DNA of 61,737 nt, filler included, from a candidate division TA06 bacterium SM23_40 (GTDB lineage Bacteria > LJUI01 > SM1-40), in the NCBI GenBank assembly GCA_001303705.1. It is 4 parts of 4 records of this genome, joined end to end, with 100 filler letters (N's around TTAATTAATTAA, not from the genome) between each part and the next. Parts side by side here need not be neighbours in the genome. Positions count along the whole stretch, not along the records: positions 1 to 31,276 come from LJUI01000012.1; 3 more parts are not named here. The stretch is one strand, 5' to 3'. The notes beneath the pieces are model-generated. The model searched no databases. It saw only the letters and a program-made list of their open reading frames with translations, and was not told the DNA's origin. Below, piece by piece: positions 6,383 to 22,091 of the stretch (its first letter is position 1; the number at the start of each line of letters is the position of its first letter). A program made the translations under genes and the position numbers.

Positions 6383-7255
6383 TTAGGCGGGGACCCGCTC
6401 TCGCAGTAGCGGCTCTGGATTGACGATATGCTTGCCCAGCGCCAATTCTTTGTGGGACAGCCCAAACGCCAGCCCCATCAACTGGGTAAAGTAGAAGGTG
6501 GGCATGTTGCCGTAGTCAACGCCGTACTTCTCTTCGATCTCGGTGAGACGGGTATCCAGATTCGCATGACAGAGTGGACAGGCGACGGCAATGGCGTCAG
6601 CACCGACCGCCTTCGCCTCGTTGAAGATATCGTTGACCAGCTTTAGCACAATATCTGTCTCAGTGAGCGAGAAGACGCCTCCACAGCATTCAGTCTTGTA
6701 CGACCAATCGACTGTTGGAATGCCGACACTCTGGAGCACTCTATCCATAGTGACCGGGTATTCACAGACATCGAACTGAGCGGCCTTCGGGGGCCTGGTG
6801 AGAAGACAGCCATAGTAGCACGCCACTTTCAGATCCGACAAATCTCGCTTGACATGGCTTCGTAACGTCCCACTATCCACCCGGTCAAACATCTCCAGGG
6901 GATGTATCACGTGGATCTGCCCCTGGAACGAAGATCCGACAACCTCATCAACATCTTTCCTCAGTTCTTCATCCTCCCCGATCTCATATAGAGCAATCTT
7001 GAAGCGGGAGAAACAGGCCGCACACGGAACTACCATCTCCTCCAGCTTGGTGCGTTCAGCAAGCACCAGATTCTTCATCGGCATCGCAAGCGAGAGTAAC
7101 CGAGAGGTCGAATGAGCGGGCGACGTGCCACAGCATAGCCATCCCGGAACCTCTTCGAGCTCAATCCCGAGGCTTTGACAGACGGCCTTGAACGATTCGT
7201 CGAACTCGGTGCCTGTCGAGTGGAGGGAGCATCCTGGGTAGTACGCGTATTTCAT
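6383..7255 (-). CDS. hdrB: Heterodisulfide reductase subunit B
   Basis: Two intact CCG domains: YYPGC..WLCCG..PCAAC and YYGC..ECCG..ACPLC. Confidence 0.93.
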   Translation of the reverse strand: MKYAYYPGCSLHSTGTEFDESFKAVCQSLGIELEEVPGWLCCGTSPAHSTSRLLSLAMPMKNLVLAERTKLEEMVVPCAACFSRFKIALYEIGEDEELRKDVDEVVGSSFQGQIHVIHPLEMFDRVDSGTLRSHVKRDLSDLKVACYYGCLLTRPPKAAQFDVCEYPVTMDRVLQSVGIPTVDWSYKTECCGGVFSLTETDIVLKLVNDIFNEAKAVGADAIAVACPLCHANLDTRLTEIEEKYGVDYGNMPTFYFTQLMGLAFGLSHKELALGKHIVNPEPLLRERVPA

Positions 7256-7830
7256 CTCGTGACCCTCTTTTCCTTCTTCTTGACCCGGGAAAATAGCCGC
7301 CAGGTGGCGATGGTTCTGCCAAGGCTGAGGCTGGGGAGCATCTTCAGTTTTCCTTTTCGCATCATCTTCATGCCCAAGCCCATGTCCTTGAAGAAATCCC
7401 TGGTGAGCATCTTCAGCATCATCATCATCCCGACCTCGTACATCCGCCCGAACAGCCTGATAGTGGTGAGTCCGCTCCTATAGAACGAGGCAACCCCTGG
7501 CACAGGCGGCTGTATCCCACGTCGGCGGGCGATGATCTTCGCAGCATCCATCACTTTCGCGATGTCGACATCCTGCGGACATCGGGTCGTACAGGTCTCG
7601 CATGCTGCACACATCCACATCGTCTTGCTATGAAGGATGAGATCGTCAAGTCCGAGCCGGACGGCGTGGATGAGCTGCGCGGGAGTGTAATCCATCGCGT
7701 AGCTTGTCGGGCAGCCAGCAGTGCATTTGTTGCACTGGAAGCACAAGTTGACGTCGACGCCGCTTTCGAGCTTGAATGCTCTGGCCAGCTCGGAGGTCGG
7801 TGTGACGAGACCTATCGTTGATTCGTTCAT
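7252..7830 (-). CDS. hdrC: Heterodisulfide reductase subunit C
   Basis: CFQCNKCTAGCP and WMCAACETCTTRCP; overlaps hdrB start. Confidence 0.92.
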   Translation of the reverse strand: MNESTIGLVTPTSELARAFKLESGVDVNLCFQCNKCTAGCPTSYAMDYTPAQLIHAVRLGLDDLILHSKTMWMCAACETCTTRCPQDVDIAKVMDAAKIIARRRGIQPPVPGVASFYRSGLTTIRLFGRMYEVGMMMMLKMLTRDFFKDMGLGMKMMRKGKLKMLPSLSLGRTIATWRLFSRVKKKEKRVTR

Positions 7831-8330
7831 TTCGATCCGCCCCCTAGATATCTCTCGTAGATCAGCTTTCCTGCATTACGCACAGCCTCCTGGACCGGTG
7901 GAGAGAGCCCGGGCTCGACCGCATCGGGAATAGTCAGCGGCTGGCAGGCCAGCACGACGACATCGATGTGGCAGAAGTCGTGCAGCTCCTTGAGGAGATT
8001 CGTCGTCGGAATCTGGTGAATCGAGAAATCACTCAGGTTCCGCTCGGGAAAGTCCTCGAGGCTCACCGGGAAGACCTCCCCGGGCTTTCGACCGCAATCC
8101 ACCGTATCGACGACGACGATCCGGCCGGGCCTCTCGTCGGCGAGGGCGATGTCGAATAACACCTCCCTCACGCTACTTCCCACACTCAGAACGCAGACGT
8201 CGTCAGGAATCTCGTAGCTGTCGCTGATGGTCTCCGCCACGGCCGGACCGAAGCCGTCGTCGCCGAACAGTACATTCCCGCAGCCGAGAATGACCGTGGA
8301 CTTGCCACGCCATTCCATCGACCCGTACAT
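7827..8330 (-). CDS. Hydrogenase maturation protease (HycI/HyaD/FrhD family)
   Basis: ILGCGNVLFGDDGFGP, VVVDT, SIHQ; follows the large subunit; start inferred at ATG 8330. Confidence 0.9.
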   Translation of the reverse strand: MYGSMEWRGKSTVILGCGNVLFGDDGFGPAVAETISDSYEIPDDVCVLSVGSSVREVLFDIALADERPGRIVVVDTVDCGRKPGEVFPVSLEDFPERNLSDFSIHQIPTTNLLKELHDFCHIDVVVLACQPLTIPDAVEPGLSPPVQEAVRNAGKLIYERYLGGGSK

Positions 8331-8365
8331 TTCAACCCTCACAACGCGTGAGCTTCCGGCCGCAA

Positions 8366-9808
8366 TCAGCTCGAAAGAGTGTCGATCACCTCGCCCGCGG
8401 CATTTCGGATCTCGATCTTGACAGGAATCGTCCCGTCGAGCTTGTGCGTCGCGCAGGAAAGACACGGATCATAGGCACGGATCGCCATCTCAACACGGTT
8501 CAGGATCCCCTGATCGTACTTGCCGTCTTTGATCAGGGAGGTAGCTGCCTGCTTCACCGACATGTTGATGGGTCCGTTGTTGTGAGTCGTGCCGACGATC
8601 AGGTTACAGTCGGTGATCATACCGTTCTCGTCGGTCTCATAGTCATGGATCAGTGTCCCCCGCGGCGCCTCGGTGCAGCCTACCCCTCGAGCGGCGCGAG
8701 GCTTGACCGGTACCCTGGTCTCCCTGCTGGTGATCTCCGGATCGTTGAGGAGCTGCACAACGAGCTCAGCATTGTACAGGAGCTCAATGAGGCGCGCCCA
8801 GTTGTACAAGAGAGTCTGCTGAGCCGGCCGGCCGAAGTTCTCGCGGAACTCCGCCAGCTCCTGATTCGCGAGCGGTGTGTCGATCTTGTCACAGACATTG
8901 ATACGCGCCAGCGTATTCGTCCGATAGATCCCGACAGGATTGTCGAGATCCATCGAGAAGTTCCCCCATTTCTTGGCGTACGGAAACTTCAGGTAGGTCC
9001 ACGGCTCGATGTGCTCGGCGATGTAGTCCGTATAGTCCTTGTACTCAAACTCCTCGTAGGAACCATCCGGCTTCATCAGTCGCGCCTTCCCATCGTATAG
9101 ATTGAGCCCACCCTCGTCGGTGACGGTGCCCAGGAAGCCGGTAGTGATGACGCCGATTGTCTTCACCGCATCGAGATACTTCGGGAAGAGGCTCTCTTTG
9201 GCAAAGGAGATCGCGAACTTGGCAAACTCGAGCATCTCCTCCGCCATCGGCAAGATCTCATCCCGCTCTTTCTGTGTGAGCGGCTTGCTGAACCCCCCCG
9301 GCACCGCGGTGACAGGATGGATCGACTTGCCAGAGACGACGTGGAGCAGGTGCGCCCCGAGCCAACGCGATCTGACAACCTTCTTCCCGATCTCCGGGTT
9401 CGTCTGAGCGATGCCGATGACGTTTCTCACCGAATAGTCGGCATCAGGACCCATGACGAAGTCCGGACCTGCCAGAAAGAAGAAGTGGAGGATGTGCTCT
9501 TCACAGAATGCTATCGCGTTGCAGAGTTCACGCAGCTTGCGGCCGGCAGGAGGAGGCTCCACCCCGAAGACCACGTCGCACGCCTTGGCCGATGCCAGGT
9601 GATGCGACCAGGGACAGACGCCGCAGATGCTCGTCGTGATGCGGGGCAACTCCTCGACAGGGCGGCCGATACAGAACTTCTCGAACCCCCGGAGCTCCAC
9701 AATCTGGCACATTGCATCAGCCACATTCCCGGCGTCATCGAGCTCAATCGTGACCTTTGCGTGACCCTCCAATCTGGTGACCGGTGCGATCGTTATCGTC
9801 TTGCCCAT
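8366..9808 (-). CDS. mvhA: [NiFe]-hydrogenase large subunit, MvhA type (group 3c)
   Basis: PVTRLEGH, ICGVC (L1), EAPRGTLIH, RAYDPCLSCATH (L2) with cleavable C-terminal tail. Confidence 0.93.
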   Translation of the reverse strand: MGKTITIAPVTRLEGHAKVTIELDDAGNVADAMCQIVELRGFEKFCIGRPVEELPRITTSICGVCPWSHHLASAKACDVVFGVEPPPAGRKLRELCNAIAFCEEHILHFFFLAGPDFVMGPDADYSVRNVIGIAQTNPEIGKKVVRSRWLGAHLLHVVSGKSIHPVTAVPGGFSKPLTQKERDEILPMAEEMLEFAKFAISFAKESLFPKYLDAVKTIGVITTGFLGTVTDEGGLNLYDGKARLMKPDGSYEEFEYKDYTDYIAEHIEPWTYLKFPYAKKWGNFSMDLDNPVGIYRTNTLARINVCDKIDTPLANQELAEFRENFGRPAQQTLLYNWARLIELLYNAELVVQLLNDPEITSRETRVPVKPRAARGVGCTEAPRGTLIHDYETDENGMITDCNLIVGTTHNNGPINMSVKQAATSLIKDGKYDQGILNRVEMAIRAYDPCLSCATHKLDGTIPVKIEIRNAAGEVIDTLSS

Positions 9809-9820: not shown

Positions 9821-10768
9821 TTATCGCTTCGGGAGCGGCCGCAGCCGCTTCTGTGCGCCGATGTACCTGTTCAGCAGCGCCCTTCTATCCTCCACCTGCT
9901 TGGGATCGAGGCCGATGGACGAAATGGCACCGAGCATATCGACCATCGGATTGGCGCCCTTCCGGATGGGGCCGAAACAACCCCGGCACGGCATGTACCC
10001 CTTGACACACCGAGGCACGATCTCCTCGCCCTCTCCCACCATTGACTGGCCGCAGCCGGCTCGCGTCACCGGACCGAGACAGAGGTACCCCTGCTCCATG
10101 AAGCAGCGTGTGTTCTCCCAGGGCCCGTCCTGGTCGAACTGCATATCCTCGAGCAGCCTCTTGATCTGGCCGCCTGCTGCCTTCTTTTCGCGCTTCGTCG
10201 GACACTCATCACAGACACTCCGCTCCGGCAGGTCAAACGGTTTCCCCTCCAGGATCGCGGTGAGCGCGTTGACAATAAGGACCGGTGCCGTCGGGCAACC
10301 CGGAATGTACGCATCGACGTTCACGACCTCATCGATGGCATAGACCCGATCAAGCAATGGCGGTATATTCTCGCTGGGCGTGTCCGCCGCATCGGTCGTC
10401 TTCGACTCCCGATAGACCTTGTCGTATAGCTCTTCGAGCGTCCACATGTTCGCCAGCGCCGGTATGCCGCCGAAGCAGGCACATGACCCGAGGGCAACGA
10501 GGGTCTTACACTTTTTCCTCATCTCTTCGGTCACGTGCTTCTCTTTCTCATTTCTCACACCGCCCGAGATGATTCCCACATCGGCCTCGGGGATCTCCAG
10601 CTCCGTCTTCTCCCCGGTCTGGCCATAATACTTGTGGTCCATGAGCACGGGCATGTGGACGAATTCCAGTTGCGGTAGAAGATCTAGCAACGGTTCCCCT
10701 ATGTCCAGAATCGTCACCTCACATCCGCCGCAGATGTTCAACCACTCTTCTGCCACTTTTGCTGGCAT
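9821..10768 (-). CDS. mvhG: [NiFe]-hydrogenase small subunit, MvhG type
   Basis: CGGC, ALGSCACFGGIP, IPGCP, SVCDECP, CLGPVTRAGC, PCRGCFGP. Confidence 0.92.
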   Translation of the reverse strand: MPAKVAEEWLNICGGCEVTILDIGEPLLDLLPQLEFVHMPVLMDHKYYGQTGEKTELEIPEADVGIISGGVRNEKEKHVTEEMRKKCKTLVALGSCACFGGIPALANMWTLEELYDKVYRESKTTDAADTPSENIPPLLDRVYAIDEVVNVDAYIPGCPTAPVLIVNALTAILEGKPFDLPERSVCDECPTKREKKAAGGQIKRLLEDMQFDQDGPWENTRCFMEQGYLCLGPVTRAGCGQSMVGEGEEIVPRCVKGYMPCRGCFGPIRKGANPMVDMLGAISSIGLDPKQVEDRRALLNRYIGAQKRLRPLPKR

Positions 10769-10995: not shown

Positions 10996-11014
10996 AATCC
11001 TGTGATCACCTCCT

Positions 11015-11431
11015 CTATGCTTTGTACGGACTCGGGCCGAGCTCTTTGATCTGCTCTGTCATCTCTGTCACGACCTGAGCAAACTTCTGCCCTTCAGACG
11101 CCGAGATCCACTCCAGGCGGAATCGTTCCGGTTCGAGTCCAAAGTCCTCCAGCATAAGCTCGATGGCCGTTGCTCTATCCTTCGCTTTCTCATTACCTTC
11201 CAGGTAATGGCATTCTCCCAGGTGTCACCCGCAGATGAGGACGCCGTCCGCTCCCTTCGTCAGAGCCTCTATGACCAGATTGGGGTGAATCATACCTGAG
11301 CACATGACCCTGATGATGCGCAGGCTGGGCGGATACTGGACCCTCGAGGTTCCCGCCAGATCTGCCCCCGCATAAGAGCACCAGTTGCATAGGAAGCCAA
11401 GGATGAGAGGTTGGAACTCATCGTTTGCCAT
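11015..11431 (-). CDS. mvhD: MvhD [2Fe-2S] subunit, selenocysteine at codon 69
   Basis: [27 protein letters not shown]-[TGA 11227-11225]-HLGECHY; frame continues through [13 protein letters not shown] to TAG; start overlaps hdrA stop (TGATG). Confidence 0.92.
11191..11209 (-). promoter_or_regulatory. Putative SECIS hairpin of mvhD
   Basis: CATTACCT-GGA-AGGTAATG perfect 8-bp stem, +16 to +34 after the TGA. Confidence 0.65.
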
Positions 11432-14400
11432 CAATAGACCTCCAGTGCTGCTTCGACCATGGCCATCAGCTGGTCGAGTTTGAATCCCCTGACGAAGATG
11501 CCCTTCTTCGGGCATGTCGCCTGGCAGACACCGCAACCCTTGCACTTCGCCTCGGCGACCTCGACCGTCTTCTTGATCTGACCTTCCTTCATGTATTCGA
11601 TGAGCGTAATCGCCTCAAAGGGACAGGGATCGACACAATAGGCACAGCCATCACAGTTCGCATCGACAACCTCCGATATCGTCGGCTCGAGTTCAACCTC
11701 CTCCTGCGACAGAATCGTAGCCGCCCTCGATGCTGCGCCTCCAGCCTGAGAGATGCTCTCATCAACAGTCTTCGGACAGTGAGCGAGCCCACACAGGAAT
11801 ATCCCATCAGTGGCGAAATCGATCGGCCTCAACTTCATGTGAGCTTCGAGGAAGAACTTGTCCCCGGTCAGCGAAACCTTGAGCATCTTCGACAGTTCTT
11901 CGGCGTCCGCACGCGGAATGATCGCCGCCGCGAGCACCAGCAGGTCCGGTCTGAGCTCGACGTCCGCGTTCAGCATCTCATCGTGAACTACCACGCGCAG
12001 CTTCCCATCCTGATGCGACACTTCGGGCTTCCGATCATCGTGGTAGCGGATGAAGCGGATGCCCATCCGGCGAGCCTCGGTGTAGTACTGTTCCCTCAGT
12101 CCGTACGTCCTGATATCGCGGTACAGAATGAAGACGTCCGCATCGGGCTGTAATTCCTTCATCTTCAGCGCGTTCTTGATCGCCTCCTGGCAGCAGACGC
12201 GGCTGCAGTACGGGCGATCGGGTTCACGCGATCCCACACACTGAATCATCGCCACGGACTTCAGGGACGCGAGATCCGATCCTGCCTCTGATGCGGCTGC
12301 CAGTCGCTCTTCGAACTCACGCTGCGTGATGACTCTCTCGTCCTGACCATAGAGATATTCTGTCGGCTTATATTCCTCCGCTCCGGTCGCCACGATGACC
12401 ACGCCATGTTCGATCTCGGTCTCGGTTCCGTTCTTGGCGATGGTCGACTTGAAGTTGCCAAAGAAGCCTTCAAACGCCGCGAGCCTGGACCCCATATGAA
12501 CCGTTATCTTGGGGTGATTCGTGGTCCGCTCGATCGTCTGAGCTAGCATCTTCTCGACGTCTTCGCCTCCGAGCAAGTAGTGAATGTGTCGCAGATTCCC
12601 ACCCAGCTCGTTCTCCCGCTCCACGATGTGGACCTCGAATCCCTGGTTGGCCAGATTGAGGGCTGCCGTCACGCCGCTCATCCCTCCGCCGATCACCAGG
12701 GCCGCATGGTTCACGGGAACGGACCGGGATACCAGAGGCTCGATCAGTCGGGCCTTGGCCAGGGCCATCCGGATCAGGTCCTTCGACTTCTCGGTAGCCG
12801 AAGCCGGCTCATGCATGTGCACCCACGTGCACTGATCGCGGATGTTGGCCATTTCGAAGAGATAGGGATTGAGGCCACCCTGACGCACGGTCTCACGGAA
12901 GAGCGGCTCGTGGGTCCTCGGGGTACAGGAGATGACCACGACGCGATTGAGGTCCTTCTCCTTGATCAGTTCCTTGATCCGCTCCTGGGTATCTGTCGAG
13001 CACGTGTAGAGATTATCCTCTACGTGCACCACGTCCGGCTGATCCTTAGTGTATCCAACAAGACTGGGGACATCGGCCACTCCCCCGATGTTCTTTCCGC
13101 AGTGGCAGATGAATACCCCGATGCGCGGGTCCTGCCCGCAGACGTCCTTTTCCGGGGGATACTCCCGATGCGCAATGAGACTACCACGCTCTTCAGCGAG
13201 AAGCGCCATCGCATGCGACGCTGCGGCTGAGGCCTCCATTACCGTCTCGGGGATATCCTTCGGCTCCGAGAATGGACCGCAGACGTACACCCCTTCCTTG
13301 GAGGAGTCGACAGGAGATGACGTGTCGGTTACGGCGAAGCCGTACTGGTCGAGTTCGATCCCGAACGTGTCGGCCAGTTCCTTCACGCGCCGCGGCGGCC
13401 TCAATCCGCTCGACAGCACGACCATGTCAAACTCTTCCGTCACGAGCTCTCCGTCATCTCGCTGGTAGCTAATCAAGAGGTTACTGGAGGCAGGTATCTC
13501 CTTTATCGAGGAAGGACGGCACCTCGTGTATTTCACGCCAAGCTCCTTGGCACGATTGTAGTACTCATCGAATCCCTTGCCGAACGCACGCATGTCGATG
13601 AAGAAGATGTGGCACTCGAGCTCCAGATCGTGCTCTTTGGCGATGATCGCCTCCTTGGTCGCATACATGCAGCAGACTGAAGAGCAGTAGTCATGCTCGA
13701 CCTCTCGAGAACCGACGCACTGGATGAACGCAATCTTCCTGGGAGGCTTGCCGTCCGAAGGTCTGAGGACTGTCCCCTGAAACGGACCGCTCGCTGAGAG
13801 TATACGTTCGAACTGGAGGCTCGAAACGACGTTGAGATATCTGTCATACCCGAATTCTTTCTTGAGATCGGGGTCGAATAGCTCGAACCCGGGCGCGAGA
13901 ACAATTGCCCCCACTTCGACATCCTCAATCTTGTCCTGTTGCTCATAATCGATCGCATTCGCTTCGCAGAAGTTCTCGCACGATTTGCACGCATCCCTGA
14001 CGAAGTGAGCACACGTCTCAGGATCGATAACGGCGATCTTGGGGATGGCCTGGGGAAATGGGATGTACACGGACGAACGCTGGGCGAGCCCCATATCGTA
14101 GTCCGAAGTAATGGGCCTGACTTCGCGGGCGGTCACCTCGGAGAGATCCACGGCGTTCGTTGGACAGACGACAGTACATGCTCCGCAGGCGATGCAGATC
14201 GGGGAGTGCTTATCGAACGGCACCGCAACCTTCCTGTCCGGGCCACGGTTTATCAAGGTGACCGCACCGACGTTCATTCTCTCCTGGCAGATGCGGGTAC
14301 AGAGTCCACAGAGGATGCAGTCATCGTCCTTCTTCGGGAACCTGGTCTCCTCAATGCCCATCTCCCGCGCCATCTCCTGGATGTGCTCCGTCTCAGGACA

Positions 14401-14685
14401 CCGCGCGAGCAACAGTTCGAGCATGAGGCGCCGCGTCTTGAGGACCCTCTCTGTGTTGGTGCGAACCTCGAGTCCCTCCTGTGCGGGATAGACACAGGAT
14501 GCCTGGATCCTCGATCTCCCGTTTTGCACGAGCTCAACGAGGCAGACGCGACATGCTCCATACGGCGCGAGCGATTTGTGGTAGCATAGGGTCGGAATCC
14601 GTATCCCCAGCTGCTCGCACGCCTCCAGGATAGTCGTCCCCTCCTCCACACTGATCTGCTGGCCATCGATGGTCAGGTTAATCAT
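11431..14685 (-). CDS. NuoG/HydA-type N-terminal Fe-S domain fused to a tandem HdrA-like flavoprotein lacking its first FAD-binding N-terminus
   Basis: IPTLCYH..ACRVC..ASC [2Fe-2S], two CxxCxxCxxxC, then HdrA motifs [57 protein letters not shown]-terminal ferredoxin. Confidence 0.88.
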
Positions 14686-15139
14686 TGCTCTCCCTGTCCC
14701 TTGTATCGAAGTAGTAGATGGAATCGCCCTTCCTATGTTCGAATCGGAGTTCGATCTCCGGCCTACCGGTTATGATTGTGCGTATCGTCTCGTAGATATC
14801 CCCCAAAGGTTTTCTGTCTGGATGGCTATATCGGAAAACTGCCCGTACCTTCGTCCCCTTGCCGGGTCCAGATGCGAGTTGAAGCTCTCCTTCACACTCC
14901 CTGGCGGCCTGCGCGAGGAGGGGCAGCCCTAATCCCACTCTCCTCGTCGTCCTCGTTGTGAAGAACGGATCGAGTGCCTTCTGTTGGGTTTCCGCATCCA
15001 TCCCCTTCCCATCATCCACAATCTCTATCACCAGAAGATCATGCTCGGCATCTTCGTCGATCCTGATTTCGATCGTCTTAGCCGATGCGCTGAGAGAATT
15101 CTCGACTATGTCGAGTATGTGAAGGGAAAGATCCTCCAC
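14678..15139 (-). CDS. Stand-alone HATPase (histidine kinase-like ATP-binding) protein
   Basis: DLSLHILDIVENS, DDGKGM, DPFFTT, VGLGL; no HisKA domain. Confidence 0.85.
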   Translation of the reverse strand: MEDLSLHILDIVENSLSASAKTIEIRIDEDAEHDLLVIEIVDDGKGMDAETQQKALDPFFTTRTTRRVGLGLPLLAQAARECEGELQLASGPGKGTKVRAVFRYSHPDRKPLGDIYETIRTIITGRPEIELRFEHRKGDSIYYFDTRDRESND

Positions 15140-15140
15140 C

Positions 15141-15860
15141 TTAGTGAACTGTCACCTTCCTTCCGTCCTTGTCGAGCAACGCCAGTTCGATCTCGTCGAT
15201 CGTGGCCTCCTCCAGCGTAAACGTCGTAGTGGCCCTTCCGATATCACTCAGAAAATGGGCATCGGAACAGGTGATCACAGGATAGTCCTTCCACGCCTCG
15301 GCGGCCTGCGGACGAGACACCTCCAGGGCATCGAGCCCGAGGGCTGGCGGGATGAAGCCAAGCTGTCCGATGATACTGAACCCTTCTCGATCTACGTGAG
15401 AAGCAATCGCGAGCCCCTGGAGGCGGTGGACCGCCTGAACCACCTCTTCTACCGCAAGCGTCGTAGCCCCGATCAGCAATTTCGTGTTCGATCCTATGAC
15501 CCGGTCATACTCATCGACTATCGTCTGAGGCCCGAACGCCTCCTCGTCGTTTTCCCCCGGCAGGCTGTCGTATACGATACGCTGCATCTCACGCAGGCTG
15601 GCCTCTGTGCGGAACAGCCCAAGGATATGAACTTCCTCGCGCGACGTTATCTCCATACCGGGGATGACGCAAAGCCCCTCACTCTCTCCGGCCCTCGTCA
15701 CAGCATCCACGTTATCCATCGAGTTATGATCACAAATCGCGATTATATCGAGGCCAACCTGCTTCGCCTGTCTTACAATCATCCTGGGGATCATCTCCGG
15801 ATCCGCGCATGGAGAGAGACATGTGTGGAGATGCAGATCTGCACTGAACTCCCTCATCAT
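15141..15860 (-). CDS. PHP-domain phosphoesterase
   Basis: DLHLHTCLSPC, ICDHN, EEVHIL, SHVD, SDAH. Confidence 0.88.
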   Translation of the reverse strand: MMREFSADLHLHTCLSPCADPEMIPRMIVRQAKQVGLDIIAICDHNSMDNVDAVTRAGESEGLCVIPGMEITSREEVHILGLFRTEASLREMQRIVYDSLPGENDEEAFGPQTIVDEYDRVIGSNTKLLIGATTLAVEEVVQAVHRLQGLAIASHVDREGFSIIGQLGFIPPALGLDALEVSRPQAAEAWKDYPVITCSDAHFLSDIGRATTTFTLEEATIDEIELALLDKDGRKVTVH

Positions 15861-16201
15861 CTCGTCCCGGAGATTCCCAGCTCGTAGAGCTTGCCAACGA
15901 CCTCAAACGTCGGCATGTCGGTCACCATGATGGGCATCGCTTCCTGCTCTGCCGCTTCCAGAGTCCCCTCCTCCGGTTCCCTCCCATTGACGAGCACGAT
16001 TCCCGCGAGCTTGTTCATCGAGGCGACCGCCACGATGTTCTGATGAATCTGAAGCGTGATCCAGATATCTCCTTCGTTGCTATTGGCGATCACGTCGCTG
16101 AGGAGATCGCTGGCGTATCCTCCGGTCACGTCTTCGCCAAGCTTTTCTTTCCCGCTTCTAACAGACAGGTCGAGCCGGTCTACTATCTCGGACAGCTTCA
16201 A
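15857..16201 (-). CDS. DRTGG/HPr-kinase N-terminal-like domain protein
   Basis: GGYASDLLSDV, WITLQ.HQNIVAVA. Confidence 0.82.
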   Translation of the reverse strand: MKLSEIVDRLDLSVRSGKEKLGEDVTGGYASDLLSDVIANSNEGDIWITLQIHQNIVAVASMNKLAGIVLVNGREPEEGTLEAAEQEAMPIMVTDMPTFEVVGKLYELGISGTR

Positions 16202-17127
16202 GATCCTCTCCCCTGCTCAGTAAATATGCAGACCTTCAGATGAGTCCCTGATCCGACATCCGAGGTGAGCACCATTTCATCGGCGCACTTCTGGATATTG
16301 TTCAGACCCATACCCGCTCCAAACCCGAGCTCTCTCACCCACTCCGGAGCCGTCGAATACCCCGGCTGCATCGCCTTCTCTACGTCAGGGATACCCGGAC
16401 CCGAGTCCCTCACGTCAACCACGATCTTCTCGGGATCGATCTCGCACGATATCTTGCCCCCCGGCGTGTACACAACCACATTCATCTCCGCCTCATACGT
16501 CGCAATGGCGACCCGGCGGACGATACGGGGATCTATCCCCAGACGCCTCAGCGTTGTCTTCAGCCCGCTGGCACTCTCCCCCGCCCGCTCGAAGTCCTGA
16601 CCGACGACGTCATACTCGAACAAGAGCTTCGTCCGGTCGGCCAGAATGTCCTCAAAGATATGGCTCGCGCGATAGCGATGGATCTCTTCCTCGCTGTAGT
16701 CGATCTCGAGCTTCCTCAGAAGCCCCTCAATAACGAGACCCGCGGTAATGATCCCCACCAGCTCGTTCGTTTCGCGATCGATGACGGGGAACCGGCCGTA
16801 GCCAAGTTGCTCCAGTTTGTTGACAGCGGTCACGAGTGGCTCGTCGGCGTACAGCGTCTTCACATCGCGCGTCATCTTTGCCCCTATGGGGCAATCATCT
16901 TCTCTGTTTGCCAACCACTTGATGAAGTCCTCCAGGCTGATGATACCGACGAGTGCATCGCCCTCTACCACGGGAGCGCCTGAAATCCGATTGACGCGAA
17001 GAATCTCCCTCAGTTCGCTCATCTGGGTAGTCGGTCCGACAGTGATCACTTTTCTCCGCATCACCTCCTGAACCTTCATCTCGTATACGAGTTCTTGAAT
17101 CTTGGTGATCTTCTCGTCTCGATTCAA
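16198..17127 (-). CDS. CBS-pair domain fused to RsbW/RsbT-type Ser/Thr kinase
   Basis: Two CBS repeats, then AGESAS..YEAEMN..DSGPGI..GFGAGMGL. Confidence 0.85.
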   Translation of the reverse strand: MNRDEKITKIQELVYEMKVQEVMRRKVITVGPTTQMSELREILRVNRISGAPVVEGDALVGIISLEDFIKWLANREDDCPIGAKMTRDVKTLYADEPLVTAVNKLEQLGYGRFPVIDRETNELVGIITAGLVIEGLLRKLEIDYSEEEIHRYRASHIFEDILADRTKLLFEYDVVGQDFERAGESASGLKTTLRRLGIDPRIVRRVAIATYEAEMNVVVYTPGGKISCEIDPEKIVVDVRDSGPGIPDVEKAMQPGYSTAPEWVRELGFGAGMGLNNIQKCADEMVLTSDVGSGTHLKVCIFTEQGRGS

Positions 17128-17490
17128 CTAACCACTCTCCGTCGCCTCATAGTCGCCCGGGAGGCCCTCGGTATAGAGCCGGCCACAGGCCTCAAACATC
17201 CGGAACCTGGTTGCGAGCAACGGAATGTTCTTGAGCTGAGCCAGCTTGACGGTCTCATCTGTGGGCTTCTTCCCGCGCACGAAACAGATCGCGACGATAT
17301 CTTGCATCTCTGCCGTTCGCACTGTCTGCTGATTCGTCAGCCCGGTGAGTAAGAGTGAAGCAGGCTTGATGAAGGCGAGGACGTCGCTCATAAGATCGGA
17401 GCCGCAGCCCATCTTGACCCTACGATGCAGAAGATCTTTTCCCACGATGACCTCAGCCTCCAGTACTCTCCTCACGTCCTCGAGAGTCAT
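17128..17490 (-). CDS. DRTGG-domain protein
   Basis: GSDLMSDVL, LLLTGL, VRGKKP, MFEACGRLY; start inferred at ATG 17490. Confidence 0.82.
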   Translation of the reverse strand: MTLEDVRRVLEAEVIVGKDLLHRRVKMGCGSDLMSDVLAFIKPASLLLTGLTNQQTVRTAEMQDIVAICFVRGKKPTDETVKLAQLKNIPLLATRFRMFEACGRLYTEGLPGDYEATESG

Positions 17491-17495
17491 GCTCT

Positions 17496-17678
17496 TCACC
17501 AAGGCTCTCCTCTTTTCCAGTCGACTAGAGCATGTTCGAACTCGCATCGCTCACAACGGTACCATCTCGGACACGGTCTATACGACGACACCCGTGAGCC
17601 CGAGAACTTGCAGAGCTGCCATGCAGCCTTATAGCTCTCGTTTCTCTCCTTCTTTTCTGTATCCGACTCGCCATTCAT
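17496..17678 (-). CDS. Small four-Cys protein, possible metal-binding
   Basis: 60 aa, C..SYRPC..YRCERCEF; fills the gap in the operon. Confidence 0.6.
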   Translation of the reverse strand: MNGESDTEKKERNESYKAAWQLCKFSGSRVSSYRPCPRWYRCERCEFEHALVDWKRGEPW

Positions 17679-17702
17679 GGATTCTCGTCCCCCATCCTGT
17701 GG

Positions 17703-20700
17703 CTATCCGTGAGCTTCGAGATCGCAGCGGAGACAACGCTTTGCCTCAAGTATCGCCATCTCCTTGGTCAGACCAAGCTCTACTTCTTCGTAACTACGCT
17801 TTCTCTGCTCGACCTCCAGCAGCGGCATCTCGGGGCGATCAAGGTTCCGCCCTTCTTCCTCGGCCAGCTTGACCGGTTCGACCTCCATCAACGGCTTGAC
17901 AACGTCATAGGTTCTCTCCAGGCTCTCGCCCCTGAGGAATTTGTGTATGGACTCAGCCGCAAGTTTCCCGTCGCCGATGGAGTTGGTCACGCTGACCGGT
18001 CCGCTCACCACTTCGCCTCCTGCGAAAACGCCATCCTTGTTGGTGGCCAGAGTCTCGGGATCGACGACAAGCGTGTTACTCTTCGAGATCTCGAAATCGT
18101 GCCCCTCGGGCAAGAACGAGAGATCCGGCTCCTGCATGATGACGGGAATGAACGTGTCGGCCTCGATAGTGAACTCAGAGCCCTTTACCGGAACGGGCCG
18201 CCGGGGACCCCGTCCGTTGCCGCCCCGCTTCGCCATCCGCACACACTCTACGCCCTTGACCTTACCGTTTCCTGATACAATCCTGGTCGGCTTTGCCAAC
18301 TCCTCGAGCCGGACGCCCTCAGCCAGTGCAGCACGGATCTCGCCCTCGGGGGCGGCCATCTCCTGGCGACTCCTCCAGAATACAACGAGAACGTCCCTGG
18401 CTCCCAGACGCAGAGCGGTGCGCGCCACATCGATCGCAGCGCTGCTGCCTCCCACGACACAGACTTTCTCGCCGACCTGCGGATTCTCTTTGAGATTGAC
18501 GGCCCGGAGCAGCGCGAGCGGGTCCAGGACGCCATCTACATCCTCTCCTGGTATCCCGAGTTTCCGGCTCTTTCCTGCACCAGTGGCAATGAGGACAGCC
18601 TTGTACCCATCATTGAACAGAGCATCGATATCCCGCACCGGCGAGTCTATCTTGATCTCCACGCCAGTCTTCTTGATGTAGTCGATCTCTCGATCGACGA
18701 GGTCCTTGGGCAGTCTGAATTCCGGAATCCAGACTGAGAGCATGCCACCGGGCACGGGCAGAGCCTCGAAGATCGTGACCGGGTAGCCGCGACGGGCCAG
18801 GAAGTACCCGGCGCTCAGCCCGGCCGGGCCAGACCCGATGATCGCCACCTTCTCCTCATACCGCTGAGGCGGGGGCTTGACCTTCGGCGTCGCACCCGAG
18901 GAACGCTCATAGTCTGCAACGAATCTCTTGAGCGCCCTGATGGCAATCGGCTTACCCCACTCCCCGGCACGGCACTTCAGTTCGCACATCTGAGGACAGA
19001 CGCGTCCACAGACAGCAGGCAGGGGGTTCTTCTCTCTGATCAGCTCCATCGCTTTCTCGAACTCAGCGCGCGCAATCAGCCCGATGTACCCGGCGGCGTC
19101 CTGGTCGAGCGGGCACGAATACTGACAGGGGGAGGAGATGATCTGCTTGCAGACGACAGCCGGACATCTCTTGTACTTGATGTGTGCTTCGTATTCGTCA
19201 CGGAAATAGCGGATCGTGCTCAATACGGGGTTCGGCGCGGTCCCTCCGAGGGCACAGAGCGACGCGTCCTGAATGGCCTGGCCTAGCTCCTCGAGCATTG
19301 CGATATCGCCTTCCTCCCCCTTGCCCTGGCAGATTCGCTCGAGCACCTTCCACATCACCTCGACGCCCTCGCGGCAGGCAGTGCACTTACCGCACGATTC
19401 GTCGCGCAGGAAGTCAGTGAAGTAACGGGCAACGTCAACGATGCATGTCTCCTCGTCCATGACGATCAGACCACCCGAGCCCATGATCGAACCGGCTTCG
19501 GCCAGGCGTTCGTAGTCGATGGGGAGATCGAGAAGCCTCTCGGGAATGCAGCCGCCGGACGGACCCCCTGTCTGGACCGCCTTGAACTTCTTGTCTCCGG
19601 GGATGCCGCCACCGATATCGAAGACGATCTCACGCATGGTGATTCCCATCGGAACCTCTACGAGCCCGGTATTGCGAACCTTTCCGACCACTGAGAAGAC
19701 CTTCGTTCCTTTGCTCGTCTCGGTCCCGATGCTGGCGAACCACTCCCCTCCGCGATTGATGATCTCGGGAACGTTCGCCCACGTCTCCACATTGTTGATA
19801 TTGGTCGGTTCTCCCCAGACTCCCGAATCGACCGGAAACGGCGGCCGAACGCGGGGCTCAGGGGGATTCCCCTCTAGAGAGGCTATAAGCGATGTCTCCT
19901 CGCCACAGACGAATGCGCCTGCCCCCCGCTGCACCTTGACATCAAAGTCGAATCCTGTTCCGAGAATGTCCTCCCCGAGCAACCCATACTCCTTTGCCTG
20001 TTCTATGGCCAATAGCAGCCTTTCCCGCGCGAGAGGGTACTCGTGTCTGATGTAGATGTGGCCCTGGGATGCACCGATCGCCCGCGCTCCAATGAGCATC
20101 CCCTCCAGTACGGTATGAGGATCTGACTCAATGATACTTCGATCCATGAACGCGCCCGGGTCGCCCTCATCGGCGTTGCAGACGATGTGCTTCCGTTCTC
20201 CCTTGGCGCGTCGAGCCAACTCCCACTTCTTCCCGGTAGGGAACCCAGCGCCGCCGCGGCCCCGCAACCCGGACTCCTTGATCTCCTCGATGATCCCCTC
20301 AGGAGTCATCTCGGTGAGAGCCTTGACGAGCGCAGTGTATCCACCGCGAGCGATGTATTCGTCGATCTTCTCTGGATCTATCAGTCCACGATTCCTCAGG
20401 GCGACCAGTCGCTGCTTGCCGAAGAACCCGATATCGGCCATTATCGGCACGGGCATCTCCTCTGCTGGAGGCGTGTACATCAGCTTCTTGACGGGCCGGC
20501 CCTTGAGGAAGTGCTCCTCGACCAGATGAGGTATCTCCTCTTCGGTCAGCAGCTGGTAGAAGATCCCCTCAGGCAGAACATGCATGACCGGCCCCTGGGC
20601 ACAGAACCCGTTGCAGCCGGTCATGACGATCCCAACTTCATGTTCGAGCTCATGCTTCCTCAGCTCGCGCTCCAGGGCTTCCTTTACCTTGAACGACCTA

Positions 20701-20759
20701 TTCGATACGCAGCCCGTTCCTGCGCAGAGCATCAGATGTGTCCTGTATTTCTCCATCAA
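17703..20759 (-). CDS. HydB/NuoF (NADH/FMN) subunit fused to a GltD/NfnB-like flavoprotein domain
   Basis: CAGTGC..GCNGFC, LRGRGGAGFPTG, NADEGDPGAFMDR, GGPSGG, ESCGKCTACR, then CQYSCP, CGRVCPQMC, GSGPAG, RCLRC. Confidence 0.9.
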   Translation of the reverse strand: MMEKYRTHLMLCAGTGCVSNRSFKVKEALERELRKHELEHEVGIVMTGCNGFCAQGPVMHVLPEGIFYQLLTEEEIPHLVEEHFLKGRPVKKLMYTPPAEEMPVPIMADIGFFGKQRLVALRNRGLIDPEKIDEYIARGGYTALVKALTEMTPEGIIEEIKESGLRGRGGAGFPTGKKWELARRAKGERKHIVCNADEGDPGAFMDRSIIESDPHTVLEGMLIGARAIGASQGHIYIRHEYPLARERLLLAIEQAKEYGLLGEDILGTGFDFDVKVQRGAGAFVCGEETSLIASLEGNPPEPRVRPPFPVDSGVWGEPTNINNVETWANVPEIINRGGEWFASIGTETSKGTKVFSVVGKVRNTGLVEVPMGITMREIVFDIGGGIPGDKKFKAVQTGGPSGGCIPERLLDLPIDYERLAEAGSIMGSGGLIVMDEETCIVDVARYFTDFLRDESCGKCTACREGVEVMWKVLERICQGKGEEGDIAMLEELGQAIQDASLCALGGTAPNPVLSTIRYFRDEYEAHIKYKRCPAVVCKQIISSPCQYSCPLDQDAAGYIGLIARAEFEKAMELIREKNPLPAVCGRVCPQMCELKCRAGEWGKPIAIRALKRFVADYERSSGATPKVKPPPQRYEEKVAIIGSGPAGLSAGYFLARRGYPVTIFEALPVPGGMLSVWIPEFRLPKDLVDREIDYIKKTGVEIKIDSPVRDIDALFNDGYKAVLIATGAGKSRKLGIPGEDVDGVLDPLALLRAVNLKENPQVGEKVCVVGGSSAAIDVARTALRLGARDVLVVFWRSRQEMAAPEGEIRAALAEGVRLEELAKPTRIVSGNGKVKGVECVRMAKRGGNGRGPRRPVPVKGSEFTIEADTFIPVIMQEPDLSFLPEGHDFEISKSNTLVVDPETLATNKDGVFAGGEVVSGPVSVTNSIGDGKLAAESIHKFLRGESLERTYDVVKPLMEVEPVKLAEEEGRNLDRPEMPLLEVEQRKRSYEEVELGLTKEMAILEAKRCLRCDLEAHG

Positions 20760-20785
20760 CTGGCTCCCTCTATCTCTCGAACTAT

Positions 20786-21169
20786 CTAGGATACCCGTTC
20801 ACTCCCTATCGCAAGAGCATATTCGGTTACGATCTGGCCGCCGAGTACGTGTTCCTCGAATATCCGGTTCGCCTTCTCCTCAGTGAGATCGATATACTTG
20901 ACAGGAGCCTCTCCCTTGAGCTCGATCGTAGCCATGGGCTCGTGGGCACAGAGACCAGCGCAACCAGACGTGGTGAGGATAATGTCCTTTAACTGCCTCG
21001 CTTCCACCAGACCGAGGAACGCGCTCATGATCTTGCGTGCGCCGGCAGCGATTCCGCACGTCCCCATATGCACAGTGATTTTCGCCCTGGCATCGCCGTC
21101 ACGCAGGCTCATCGTCCTCGCCATCGTCTCCCTGATCCTCTCCAGATCACCAGGCGTCAACTTGGGCAC
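20786..21169 (-). CDS. Thioredoxin-like [2Fe-2S] ferredoxin (HydD/HndB-like)
   Basis: VHMGTCGIAAGAR, SGCAGLCAHEP. Confidence 0.85.
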   Translation of the reverse strand: MPKLTPGDLERIRETMARTMSLRDGDARAKITVHMGTCGIAAGARKIMSAFLGLVEARQLKDIILTTSGCAGLCAHEPMATIELKGEAPVKYIDLTEEKANRIFEEHVLGGQIVTEYALAIGSERVS

Positions 21170-21182
21170 GGTTCACTCTCCT

Positions 21183-22091
21183 CTAGTCCTTGTATCTATC
21201 GAGGAGCGCGACGGCGTCGGCCGCGTTCAGCTTGCCGTAGAGATCGTCTCCTATCGTAATGACGGGAGAGAGACCGCAACACCCGATGCAGCGCACTCCT
21301 TGCAGTGTGAATTGCATGTCCGGCGTCGTTTCGCCTACCTTGATGTCGAGCTCACGCTCGAACCGATCGAGGATCCTACCTGCACCCTTGACGTGACAGG
21401 CAGTACCCAAGCAGACAGTGATGATATGCTTTCCTCTCGGCACCAGGCTGAACGACTTGTAGAAGGTGGCTATCCGCACGATATGTTCAATCGGTATCCG
21501 CTTCGCCTGCGATATACGCACCAGAACGTCGGCGGGCAGCCAGTTGAACTCTTCGCTGATGTCCTGGAGGATCGGAACGAGGACCTCCTGACCGCCGTCG
21601 TATCGGTCGAGAATCTCGTCAACCTTTCCACGCATTGACACATCGAGATCGATCTCCGGCAGGAGGGCGGGCTCGAGATAGGCAAGGTTTCTCACAAGGC
21701 AGTTCTCGACACACTCGCCGCAGCCCGTGCATTTGTCTTCGTCTATGTATCGGGCCTTCCTCCTCACGCGGACCACGAATCTTCCGGCCGCCCCCTCTAC
21801 CTCCTCAACCTCGGAGTAGGCGAGCTTCTCGATATTGAAATGACTCCCGCAATCGACCATCCGGGGAGCAAGCGTACACATGGCGCAGTCGTTGGTGGGA
21901 AAGGTCTTATCCAGCTGGGCCATCACTCCCCCGATCGACGGCCCTCTCTCCACCAGATAGACTTTGTATCCGGAGTCGGCAAGATCGAGCGACGCCTGCA
22001 TCCCTCCGATTCCGCCACCGACGACCATTACCGCCCCGACTTTCTTGTCGCTCCCTTCCGCCGTTTCTTTGCTATCGTTCTCTTCCGCCAT
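21183..22091 (-). CDS. HdrA N-terminal FAD-binding fragment fused to NuoE/HydC [2Fe-2S] domain
   Basis: VGGGIGG, SIGGVMAQLDKTFPTNDCAMC, RYIDEDKCTGCGECVENC, then ATFYKSF, VCLGTACHVKG, RCIGCC; start inferred at ATG 22091. Confidence 0.88.
   Translation of the reverse strand: MAEENDSKETAEGSDKKVGAVMVVGGGIGGMQASLDLADSGYKVYLVERGPSIGGVMAQLDKTFPTNDCAMCTLAPRMVDCGSHFNIEKLAYSEVEEVEGAAGRFVVRVRRKARYIDEDKCTGCGECVENCLVRNLAYLEPALLPEIDLDVSMRGKVDEILDRYDGGQEVLVPILQDISEEFNWLPADVLVRISQAKRIPIEHIVRIATFYKSFSLVPRGKHIITVCLGTACHVKGAGRILDRFERELDIKVGETTPDMQFTLQGVRCIGCCGLSPVITIGDDLYGKLNAADAVALLDRYKD

Follow-up and report, generated by a model that had tools for sequence, protein, structure and literature searches.

An HdrA flavin module encoded in two pieces, fused to NuoE- and NuoG-type sequences, in an operon of candidate division TA06 bacterium SM23_40

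The two fusion genes

We analysed a window (the whole stretch of DNA studied here, 61,737 nucleotides) from the metagenome-derived genome of candidate division TA06 bacterium SM23_40 (G000; 189 contigs), in which the heterodisulfide reductase subunit A (HdrA) sequence is distributed over two genes. One runs from the HdrA N-terminus into a NuoE/HydC-type subunit; the other begins as a NuoG/HydA-type subunit, resumes HdrA and ends in a second HdrA module. Window positions 1-31276 are contig C35 of this genome and positions 31277-61737 are filler (N) or other contigs, so that gene order across 31276/31277 reflects no real linkage. Both genes belong to a tight run of minus-strand genes extending from 22091 down to 6383, and their parts are the following (Cys, cysteine; aa, amino acids; FAD, flavin adenine dinucleotide).

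21672..22091, minus strand: HdrA N-fragment, residues 1-140 of a 302-aa protein, with a GGGIGG beta-alpha-beta motif, DKTFPTNDC69AMC72 and ferredoxin motif 1 (C121xxC124xxC127xxxC131); Cys invariant in 29 sequences
21183..21644, minus strand: NuoE/HydC/BfuC-type thioredoxin-like [2Fe-2S] domain, C-terminal to the HdrA N-fragment; PF01257, E 6.4e-45; HydC 8A6T_C, E 1.1e-42; C227, C232, C268 and C272 invariant
14131..14685, minus strand: NuoG/HydA/BfuA-type N-terminus, residues 1-185 of a 1084-aa protein, with [2Fe-2S] Cys 34, 45, 48 and 64 and two CxxCxxCxxxC motifs (C123.., C164..); Fer2_4, Fer4; 9MQX_A, 8A6T_A; Cys invariant
13150..14130, minus strand: HdrA C-fragment, residues 186-512 of the 1084-aa protein, with motif 2 (C225, C233, C236, C240), E293, K344 and cluster Cys 323, 334, 338 and 339
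11431..13149, minus strand: second HdrA module, residues 513-1084 of the 1084-aa protein, with N-terminal Fe-S domain, FAD domain and C-terminal 2[4Fe-4S] domain

The smaller gene (21183-22091, minus strand) encodes 302 residues from its ATG, and the open frame extends upstream to a TTG at 22358. A first-pass annotation, made from the sequence alone, had read the protein as an HdrA FAD-binding N-terminus that passes through one ferredoxin motif into NuoE/HydC, and both Pfam and solved structures bear this out, with the quoted motifs present. By Pfam, residues 21-62 match FAD/NAD Rossmann families, residues 114-131 a single 4Fe-4S motif and residues 157-301 the NuoE-type thioredoxin-like [2Fe-2S] domain. 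In a search of solved structures, residues 21-133 aligned with residues 146-258 of HdrA from Methanothermococcus thermolithotrophicus (5ODC_A, 654 aa; E 1.5e-42), which served as the reference for complementarity, and residues 156-302 with residues 16-162 of HydC (8A6T_C). The HdrA part comprises the first ~115 residues of the FAD domain and, from the inserted ferredoxin domain, Cys motif 1; it stops matching unsplit HdrA right after CTGCGECVENC. C72 corresponds to Cys197 of 5ODC_A (mapped by hand from the alignment). With its PF01257 match and four invariant Cys, the C-terminal part has the NuoE-like thioredoxin fold and [2Fe-2S] site of a BfuC subunit. The fusion forms a family of at least 120 protein clusters; the best 120 (280-302 aa, 69-100% identical) all have PF01257 and a FAD Rossmann family, and databases name them 'NuoE', 'NuoE family protein' or 'heterodisulfide reductase subunit A'.

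The larger gene (11431-14685, minus strand; 1084 aa) carries Fer2_4 and Fer4 at its start, a second Rossmann domain at residue 663 and a C-terminal dicluster domain by Pfam. Its residues 2-181 matched residues 5-185 of the NuoG-like chain 9MQX_A colinearly (247 aa; E 4.9e-40), and residues 1-180 matched residues 3-205 of HydA1 (8A6T_A). Against 5ODC_A, residues 164-431 aligned with 246-498, 518-752 with 2-237 and 902-1079 with 475-648. The order proposed on the first pass, a NuoG/HydA N-terminus, HdrA resuming and a second HdrA module, agrees with all three sets of alignments. The accompanying claim that each protein holds one unpaired Cys motif had to be narrowed: the first 260 residues of the large protein hold three, of which C123.. 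and C164.. are the NuoG/HydA-type CxxCxxCxxxC, and only HdrA motif 2 (C225-x7-C233-xx-C236-xxx-C240) is unpaired. The His-ligated cluster motif of HydA/NuoG was not spotted by eye in the BfuA-type N-terminus.

E293 and K344 of the large protein correspond to E356 and K409 of 5ODC_A (mapped by hand) and are invariant in the 29 sequences; at the flavin, K409 and E356 are proposed marks of bifurcating HdrA (PMC12054007). The two modules are complementary in content. Module 1, which is the split one, has C72 (= Cys197) and is without the N-domain; module 2 has the N-terminal Fe-S domain (518-650), has no Cys where DKTFPTNDC of 5ODC_A aligns and is without the inserted ferredoxin domain. Module 2 also has the GxGxxG motif and, in most sequences, the Lys/Glu positions (29-sequence consensus). 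Such a complementary pattern is known from the tandem or fused HdrA of anaerobic methanotrophic (ANME) archaea (PMC9012536), and by it the window's modules belong with tandem/fused-dimer HdrA (type II; BamE-like).

Complementarity, conservation and modelling of the fragments

The small-protein match ends at residue 258 of 5ODC_A and the large-protein match starts at 246/259, so the two HdrA pieces abut. The break falls inside the inserted ferredoxin domain, directly after motif 1 and ahead of motif 2. The 2[4Fe-4S] domain that would have both motifs in one chain is therefore divided, with motif 1 on the 302-aa and motif 2 on the 1084-aa protein, both conserved. The ends of the FAD fold likewise lie on two polypeptides, GxGxxG within residues 21-62 of the small protein and a G..PKDIP segment at residues 470-479 of the large one. 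When compared with unsplit tandem HdrA from Methanoperedens and Nitrospirota metagenome-assembled genomes (L061 and L080, respectively), the large protein was colinear from the segment past motif 1 to the C-terminus. The alignments to 5ODC_A, L061 and L080 thus agree on the complementary coverage of full-length and tandem HdrA that the first reading had predicted. The same reading had mentioned the NAD(P)H-binding insertion in HdrL. The inserted ferredoxin domain is indeed the same, but the point differs: in HdrL-type comparators (L062, L057 and L076) the ~480-aa GltD insertion falls after the FPQAVP strand and before motif 2, ~35 residues beyond the break found here.

To assess distribution, a scan of one genome per GTDB species yielded 80 loci and a metagenome scan for the NuoG-N/HdrA junction yielded 80 more, with operon parts placed by tblastn. 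In the forward direction, 51 loci had HdrA-N followed by NuoE. The NuoG-N/HdrA-C gene lay downstream in 41 of them, 1878-6284 nt after nuoE, and the remaining 10 were all cut by a contig end 45-5483 nt after nuoE. In the reverse direction, the small gene lay upstream in 15 of 42 loci with the NuoG-N/HdrA-C junction, and 25 had less than 5.8 kb of upstream DNA. The two fusions hence co-occur, as had been anticipated, in 41 of 41 loci with enough flank forward and in 15 of 17 in reverse. Both halves were found on 56 independent contigs from many phyla. Their hosts, as named in the records, include Sedimentisphaerales, Spirochaetes, Eubacteriales, Melioribacter, Cloacimonadota, Acidobacteriota, Gemmatimonadales, Bacteroidetes, Stahlbacteria, Fibrobacterota, Desulfobacterales/Desulfatiglandales/Syntrophobacterales, Sumerlaeia, an uncultured archaeon and a Thermoplasmata archaeon. 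Among 41 same-domain genomes scanned, matches covering both halves of the small protein occurred only in G000, G001 and G002.

Two features of the relatives concern the N-fragment itself. In several Desulfobacterales loci (L037, L039, L042, L044, L046, L048 and L049) it is free-standing, with a true stop just past motif 1 and nuoE as a separate open reading frame (ORF), and further loci show a frame change; a conserved free-standing N-fragment of 125-135 aa is hard to explain except as a subunit completing the C-fragment. In Desulfobacterota relatives (L037, L039, L041, L042, L044, L046-L049 and L052) the codon at the Cys197 position is TGA (DCAM-U).

Conservation was examined in alignments of 29 sequences each, at 45-71% identity. 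In the small protein the DKTFPTND motif, C69, C72 and C121/124/127/131 were invariant, and in the large protein C225/233/236/240, E293, K344, C323/334/338/339 and KDIP. Across the wider set, DKTFPTxDCxx[C/U] was found in 45 of 45 small proteins (U in 6) and ferredoxin motif 1 in 43 of 45; motif 2 was found in 60 of 62 large proteins and the two NuoG-type motifs in all 62.

These patterns bear on the possibility that the HdrA-N and HdrA-C pieces are remnants without a FAD site, at most a docking scaffold, and that only module 2 is active. BamE of class II benzoyl-CoA reductase pairs a bifurcating FAD with a FAD domain that does not bifurcate and is mainly structural (bioRxiv 10.64898/2026.04.10.717634), so dead HdrA modules do exist, and module 2 here retains GxGxxG and mostly the Lys/Glu positions. 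We nevertheless regard a relic as improbable: the FAD-site and cluster residues of the split module are all invariant at the identities above, 6 of 45 small proteins even have selenocysteine at the Cys197-equivalent position, the unfused N-fragment persists as a gene of its own, and the Cys197 equivalent and the inserted ferredoxin domain are present only in the split module.

A misassembly, or a frameshifted long HdrL-like gene, might mimic two fusions. The source is a metagenome-derived genome of 189 contigs, and assembly graphs break at conserved HdrA motifs (contig ends 12842, 19740, 20181 and 21904). Contigs of four public sequencing runs lie on 11000-22400. In run X1, a possible source of the assembly, record 4 covers 12844-19740 and record 6 covers 20152-21904, with zero differences; in run X5, which was not flagged as a source, record 20 covers 13333-14348, across the NuoG-N/HdrA junction near 14130, again with zero differences. 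Contigs from other runs therefore bridge both junctions unchanged, the same architecture recurs on dozens of contigs (both fusions on the 56 independent ones), at least 120 clusters (~293 aa) carry the HdrA-N/NuoE fusion, and five to seven complete genes separate the halves. No sign of misassembly was seen at the junctions, and an artefact is scarcely credible, being refuted as far as sequence data allow.

Summed contig depth at 21668-22048 and 20144-20524 was 3- to 40-fold over neighbouring bins in all four runs, and contigs break nearby. These bins are the most conserved HdrA and NuoF stretches, common to other community members and to paralogues.

We modelled residues 1-150 of the small protein together with residues 1-520 of the large protein, on alignments that we built ourselves. 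The pair scored 0.86 and the best of three controls 0.01; a mark of 0.86 was met by 58 of 80 solved complexes and by 2 of 110 mismatched pairs, which is a rough guide only, since author-built alignments were used. Runs agreed in at least 91% of contacts, with a partner pLDDT (predicted local distance difference test) of at least 83. The closest contacts were both cross-chain: the strand at 21-24 of the small protein with 258-263 of the large one (Rossmann sheet), and 113-117 with 220 and 244-251 (ferredoxin sheet). Further contacts of the small protein were with 464-505, with 132-137 and with the NuoG-type cluster region at 162-173. The interface expected between the halves is thus predicted by a model that passes its controls, though likeness to HdrA may explain the pass, and the model supports a probable binding of the two halves.

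A different cluster topology would keep the shared FAD site: C164.. would pair in cis with C225.., and the small-protein motif would pair with C123.. or bind a separate cluster. Both phmmer and MAFFT aligned C164-C174 with HdrA motif 1, and the following segment with the HdrA segment past motif 1, and the model contacts with 132-137 and 162-173 point the same way. The C123.. and C164.. motifs, however, match the 2[4Fe-4S] part of NuoG-like/HydA chains without large gaps (9MQX_A 5-185), and the closest contacts, 113-117 with 220 and 244-251, describe a canonical ferredoxin fold with motif 1 and motif 2 across chains. We consider this topology unlikely, and proceed with motif 1 and motif 2 as the predicted pair.

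The remainder of the operon and its partners

The first reading had taken the unit as 11431-22091. It captured both fusion genes, ~6.5 kb apart as stated (6498 bases when measured), but the operon runs further downstream to 6383, and MvhD, the [NiFe] hydrogenase and HdrCB had been missed. The other genes of the operon are listed below (FMN, flavin mononucleotide; NADH, reduced nicotinamide adenine dinucleotide, and NAD(P)H for it or its phosphate).

20786..21169, minus strand: 127-aa thioredoxin-like [2Fe-2S] ferredoxin, called 'HydD' on the first pass; weak PF01257, E 0.0018; aligns with 5ABR and 1F37
17703..20759, minus strand: NuoF/HydB/BfuB-type FMN/NADH subunit (1-542) with a GltD/NfnB-like FAD/NAD(P)H module (543-1013) fused behind it, 1018 aa; Pfam; 7T2R_B; 9BOV_A, 9N5U_A
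14678..17547, minus strand: five-gene putative regulatory cassette, whole; Pfam
17128-17547, minus strand: DRTGG gene of the cassette; Pfam
16198-17127, minus strand: CBS pair and HATPase gene of the cassette; Pfam
15857-16201, minus strand: second DRTGG gene of the cassette; Pfam
15141-15860, minus strand: PHP gene of the cassette; Pfam
14678-15139, minus strand: HATPase_c gene of the cassette; Pfam
11015..11431, minus strand: MvhD, 138 aa, with an in-frame TGA at 11225-11227; PF02662 FlpD, E 1.7e-55
10792-10995, minus strand: 67-aa ORF between mvhD and the hydrogenase small-subunit gene; no Pfam match
9821..10768, minus strand: [NiFe] hydrogenase small subunit, MvhG-like; PF01058, E 2.5e-29
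8366..9808, minus strand: [NiFe] hydrogenase large subunit, MvhA-like; PF00374; 9SFI_g, E 9.7e-127; 7T2R_D, E 1.3e-125; MvhA 5ODC_F, E 3.3e-122
7827..8465, minus strand: hydrogenase maturation protease, HycI family; PF01750
7252..7830, minus strand: HdrC-like 2[4Fe-4S] protein; Fer4_8, Fer4_17
6383..7255, minus strand: HdrB, two CCG domains; PF02754; 9SFI_C, E 1.1e-43, and 5ODC_B, E 8.9e-39, over full length

As genes, homologues of MvhA, MvhG, MvhD, HdrB and HdrC all lie alongside HdrA in the operon. The [NiFe] large subunit is about equally near 9SFI_g, 7T2R_D and MvhA (5ODC_F).

By Pfam the 1018-aa protein begins with an N-terminal [2Fe-2S] piece; next come the FMN domain and NADH_4Fe-4S, then Fer4_20 and lastly a pyridine-nucleotide-disulfide oxidoreductase domain. 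Its NuoF part was nearest to bifurcating B subunits (7T2R_B, E 7.6e-232 over residues 3-541 of 597; 7Q4V_B, 8A6T_B and 9N5U_B), and its C-terminal half to the GltD-like chains 9BOV_A (102-567) and 9N5U_A (NfnA; 105-594). In the window the usual C-terminal 2[4Fe-4S] domain of BfuB, the acceptor for external ferredoxin (bioRxiv 10.64898/2026.04.10.717634), is replaced by Fer4_20 and the GltD-like module, whereas the 597-aa NuoF homologue of a Sedimentisphaerales relative (L012) has the BfuB layout, with Fer4 at 543-593. The 127-aa ferredoxin aligned with the N-terminal domains of BfuB-type chains. A thioredoxin-like ferredoxin and DRTGG, PHP and HATPase genes accompany the Bfu-type parts, an association probably shared with hydABC operons. 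Our literature search on DRTGG together with hydrogenase and PHP returned nothing naming DRTGG.

Partner genes were counted among the 56 loci with both halves; the counts are lower bounds, as flanks are cut. Mvh genes were found in 20 loci, the NuoF-GltD fusion in 8 and the 127-aa ferredoxin in 28; HdrB was seen in 13, and in 13 loci HdrCB directly precedes the small gene on its upstream side. The five-gene cassette was counted where at least 4 of its 5 genes occur: 18 loci have it, and it is absent from the remainder. An MvhD gene lay directly downstream of the large fusion gene in 52 of 62 loci, and 3 more were cut by contig ends. From these counts, the conserved core consists of HdrA-N(-NuoE), NuoF, NuoG-N-HdrA-C-HdrA' and MvhD, with hydrogenase and HdrBC as frequent partners. 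In one Desulfobacterales-type locus (L046:16622-19739), the split-HdrA core is followed by Fer4_8, Fer4_22 and FAD_binding_6/NAD_binding_1/DHODB-Fe-S (PyrK-like) proteins and by no [NiFe] hydrogenase, an order which suggests that partner modules are exchangeable at the MvhD side.

The TGA in mvhD is codon 69 (..LICG-TGA-HLGECHY..) and, read as selenocysteine, gives a full-length FlpD/MvhD. Behind it an 8-bp hairpin was found at 11191-11209, but the whole stretch folds no better than shuffled sequences (z 0.19), so that a selenocysteine insertion sequence (SECIS element) here is at most a possibility. Four other HdrA-like frames in G000 (on C86, at two places on C176, and on C67) have one in-frame TGA each, a pattern that would fit an organism using selenocysteine. 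Across G000 the small protein has 11 matches altogether; among these are open frames of 1505 aa (C98, HdrL-sized) and 1049 aa (C12). A BshC gene (bacillithiol biosynthesis, E 1.1e-104) lies at 3179-4816 on the same strand, ~1.6 kb past hdrB and a hypB-like gene; from this neighbourhood comes the idea that a low-molecular-weight thiol might be the substrate of HdrBC.

The partner pattern also bears on a simpler arrangement, in which a non-bifurcating HdrA and MvhD would merely conduct between a HydBC-type confurcating core and the [NiFe] hydrogenase, so that the whole would act as a hydrogenase dependent on NADH and ferredoxin (or NADPH), and HdrBC would be a separate enzyme. The [NiFe] large subunit is as near the Bfu-coupled 7T2R_D as MvhA (5ODC_F), HdrB is missing from the flanks of 43 of 56 loci, and many hosts, judged from record names, are fermenters. 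Conservation extends, however, to K344, E293, the Cys194/197 pair and every branch cluster, and HdrCB lies in the same operon here and directly beside the small gene in the 13 loci above. We hold this arrangement to be doubtful, though it deserves to be kept in view.

Proposed wiring, known systems and history

The locus as a whole is best explained, we think likely, as encoding a Bfu-Hdr-Mvh complex with an NADH module on the low-potential arm of HdrA. In HdrA, electrons enter via MvhD and the high-potential one passes via an adjacent cluster to HdrC/HdrB, or to BamD in class II benzoyl-CoA reductase (bioRxiv 10.64898/2026.04.10.717634; Wagner et al. 2017 as summarised). The low-potential electron passes to the inserted ferredoxin domain and on to external ferredoxin, or to BamBC in class II benzoyl-CoA reductase (bioRxiv 10.64898/2026.04.10.717634). 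The inserted domain as low-potential exit and the concept of a fused-dimer HdrA follow these accounts (bioRxiv 10.64898/2026.04.10.717634; PMC9012536).

On this basis the operon would encode a single oxidoreductase of several subunits, with a backbone of tandem ('fused dimer') HdrA, whose first module is genetically split in the inserted ferredoxin domain. The N-fragment would contribute the FAD-binding beta-alpha-beta unit, the CxxC equivalent to Cys197 and motif 1, heading the NuoE/HydC (BfuC) subunit; the C-fragment would contribute motif 2, the rest of the FAD domain and the Lys/Glu pair, behind a BfuA-type N-terminus and in the same chain as module 2. The fragments would reassemble in trans into one FAD site and one 2[4Fe-4S] domain with each cluster ligated by both chains, and C72 of the small protein would complete the N-domain cluster of module 2. 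Since the inserted ferredoxin domain is rebuilt from chains ending in BfuC and BfuA, its clusters should lead straight into a Bfu-type FMN/NADH core. The HydBC/Bfu-type NADH/FMN module would thereby be covalently fixed to the HdrA arm that reduces free ferredoxin in methanogens, the low-potential exit, and not to the electron entry. MvhD and the [NiFe] hydrogenase would sit at the normal electron entry and HdrBC at the high-potential exit.

We hold with good confidence that the two halves together make up a single functional HdrA module of a Bfu-HdrA complex, while the case for Mvh and HdrBC in the same complex in the source organism is about evenly balanced. Speculatively, the complex could couple H2, a disulfide/thiol couple and NAD(P)(H) reversibly, using two coupling sites arranged in series and with ferredoxin as an optional participant. 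NAD(H) would react at the FMN site, and NAD(P)(H) at the GltD-like site in the window or ferredoxin in relatives keeping the BfuB ferredoxin domain; direction would be set by physiology. Our confidence in any particular net reaction is low.

Several points weigh against this interpretation. Support for the split-HdrA family is computational throughout, and its function is what we infer from it. Since single-chain HdrA has been solved, the pass of the pair model may reflect only likeness to it. The alignment of C164.. with HdrA motif 1 makes the cis pairing of C164.. with C225.. possible from sequence. The BfuB-type subunit of the window is without the 2[4Fe-4S] domain held invariant in the Bfu literature, which makes Bfu-type bifurcation here uncertain. 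Mvh was seen in only 20 and HdrBC in only 13 of the 56 loci, lower bounds given the cut flanks, and they may lie outside the core, as exchangeable partners. Finally, two metagenome loci, L120 (9704-12913) and L123 (9698-12916), have the large fusion with 9.7 kb of upstream DNA and are without HdrA-N, NuoE and NuoF genes.

Four known systems were compared with the window. HdrL, or type III HdrA (Desulfobacterium autotrophicum, ANME-1), is alike in its tandem HdrA followed by MvhD and in an NAD(P)H flavin module inside the inserted ferredoxin domain (PMC2702500, PMC9012536, PMC12054007). HdrL-type loci (L056-L090) share 41-59% identity with the HdrA parts of the window and interleave with split forms on the tree. 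HdrL, however, is one polypeptide with one GltD-like insert after the FPQAVP strand, whereas here the HdrA frame is interrupted by separate genes (2 to 8: NuoE, ferredoxin, NuoF, the optional cassette and NuoG-N) that are fused at the ends only, and the GltD-like module of the window lies on the NuoF homologue.

Class II benzoyl-CoA reductase, Bam[(BC)2DEFGHI]2, is alike in joining a HydBC/Bfu-type module (BamGHI) to a fused-dimer HdrA (BamE), and is the sole characterised enzyme of this kind (PMC9304861; bioRxiv 10.64898/2026.04.10.717634). Its Bfu module is joined on the entry side, through the MvhD-like BamF, and its inserted ferredoxin domain continues to BamBC (bioRxiv 10.64898/2026.04.10.717634; PMC9304861). 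In the window, by contrast, the Bfu subunits are covalently on the inserted ferredoxin domain, MvhD is left for the [NiFe] hydrogenase and HdrA is split. Membership in the Bam class was dropped: beyond the different wiring, no tungsten subunit (aldehyde-oxidoreductase-type ORF) was found among the 19 operon and flank ORFs scanned.

The operon has homologues of all six subunits of methanogen MvhADG-HdrABC (5ODC), with FAD hallmarks and cluster Cys kept; it differs in its tandem, split HdrA, in showing no evident free-ferredoxin arm, in carrying an NADH/NAD(P)H module and in its bacterial host. The Bfu family (BfuABC of Schut et al. 2022; HydABC, NiFe-HydABCSL, NfnABC and Stn) supplies the nearest chains to the NuoE, NuoF and NuoG-N parts (8A6T_C, 7T2R_B and 9MQX_A/8A6T_A, respectively), but the BfuA part of the window is without H-cluster, pterin or other catalytic domain and has HdrA in its place.

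NuoEFG homologues beside hydrogenase genes are reported in Desulfurivibrio, with HdrA parts unmentioned in the available portion of that paper (PMC12142623). In our literature search no paper described an HdrA divided between fusions to NuoE and NuoG; Supplementary Table 1 of PMC9304861 and the HdrA review of Appel et al. 2021, either of which might name such an arrangement, lay beyond its reach. The split HdrA between the Bfu and Hdr families is apparently an undescribed, widespread architectural variant.

In trees of HdrA-C and HdrA', split, HdrL and unsplit forms interleave. A FastTree of 119 rows required at least 14 changes for 'split' across starred branches, and a quick IQ-TREE run of 49 rows at least 11. 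The trees reject one common origin of the split forms on the HdrA backbone: holding the 24 split rows together cost 1055 log-likelihood units (approximately unbiased test, p-AU 2.9e-51; 49 rows), in a constraint test whose groups were set by architecture but after the first tree had been seen. HdrL and split forms are immediate neighbours in Acidobacteriota, and the junction layout is identical across all split forms. Either one junction origin followed by recombination with resident HdrA paralogues or repeated capture at one site may lie behind this pattern. The first-pass picture of a cassette inserted into hdrA and fused at both ends holds for the two-end fusion here but is too simple as history, given the interleaving and the several Desulfobacterales in which the N-fragment is unfused to NuoE. 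Two loci (L162:304-10335 and L165:1266-11392) encode a ferredoxin, an unfused NuoE, NuoF-GltD and NuoG-N fused to a module-2-like HdrA, and then an unsplit tandem HdrA, an order that may be intermediate between the unsplit and the split arrangement.

Many anaerobes live close to the thermodynamic limit by means of flavin-based electron bifurcation. The combination of HdrA with HydBC/Bfu has so far been seen in class II benzoyl-CoA reductase only, and the split-HdrA family would be a second, widespread and differently wired one, in which the split site would mark the HdrA arm that talks to the NADH module. The split FAD site would also offer an easy handle on assembly and wiring.

More tentatively, the inserted ferredoxin domain of tandem HdrA may be a modular socket that has been plugged repeatedly, by a GltD domain in HdrL or by a NuoE-NuoF-NuoG(N) Bfu cassette, with a two-chain FAD site and two inter-chain [4Fe-4S] clusters hard-wiring the low-potential output into a second coupling site. 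If so, the complex would be a two-stage bifurcation/confurcation machine with a topology unlike that of class II benzoyl-CoA reductase, and H2, thiol/disulfide and NAD(P)H would be balanced without a free ferredoxin intermediate in anaerobes of at least 10 phyla.

Split-HdrA loci are common in sediment, peat, digester and subsurface lineages, which the records name as Sedimentisphaerales, Acidobacteriota, Cloacimonadota, Desulfobacterota, Ignavibacteriota, Bacillota and a Thermoplasmata archaeon. Since their genes are annotated piecemeal ('NuoE family protein', 'heterodisulfide reductase subunit A'), metabolic reconstructions of these organisms probably score separate NuoEFG, Hdr and Mvh enzymes.

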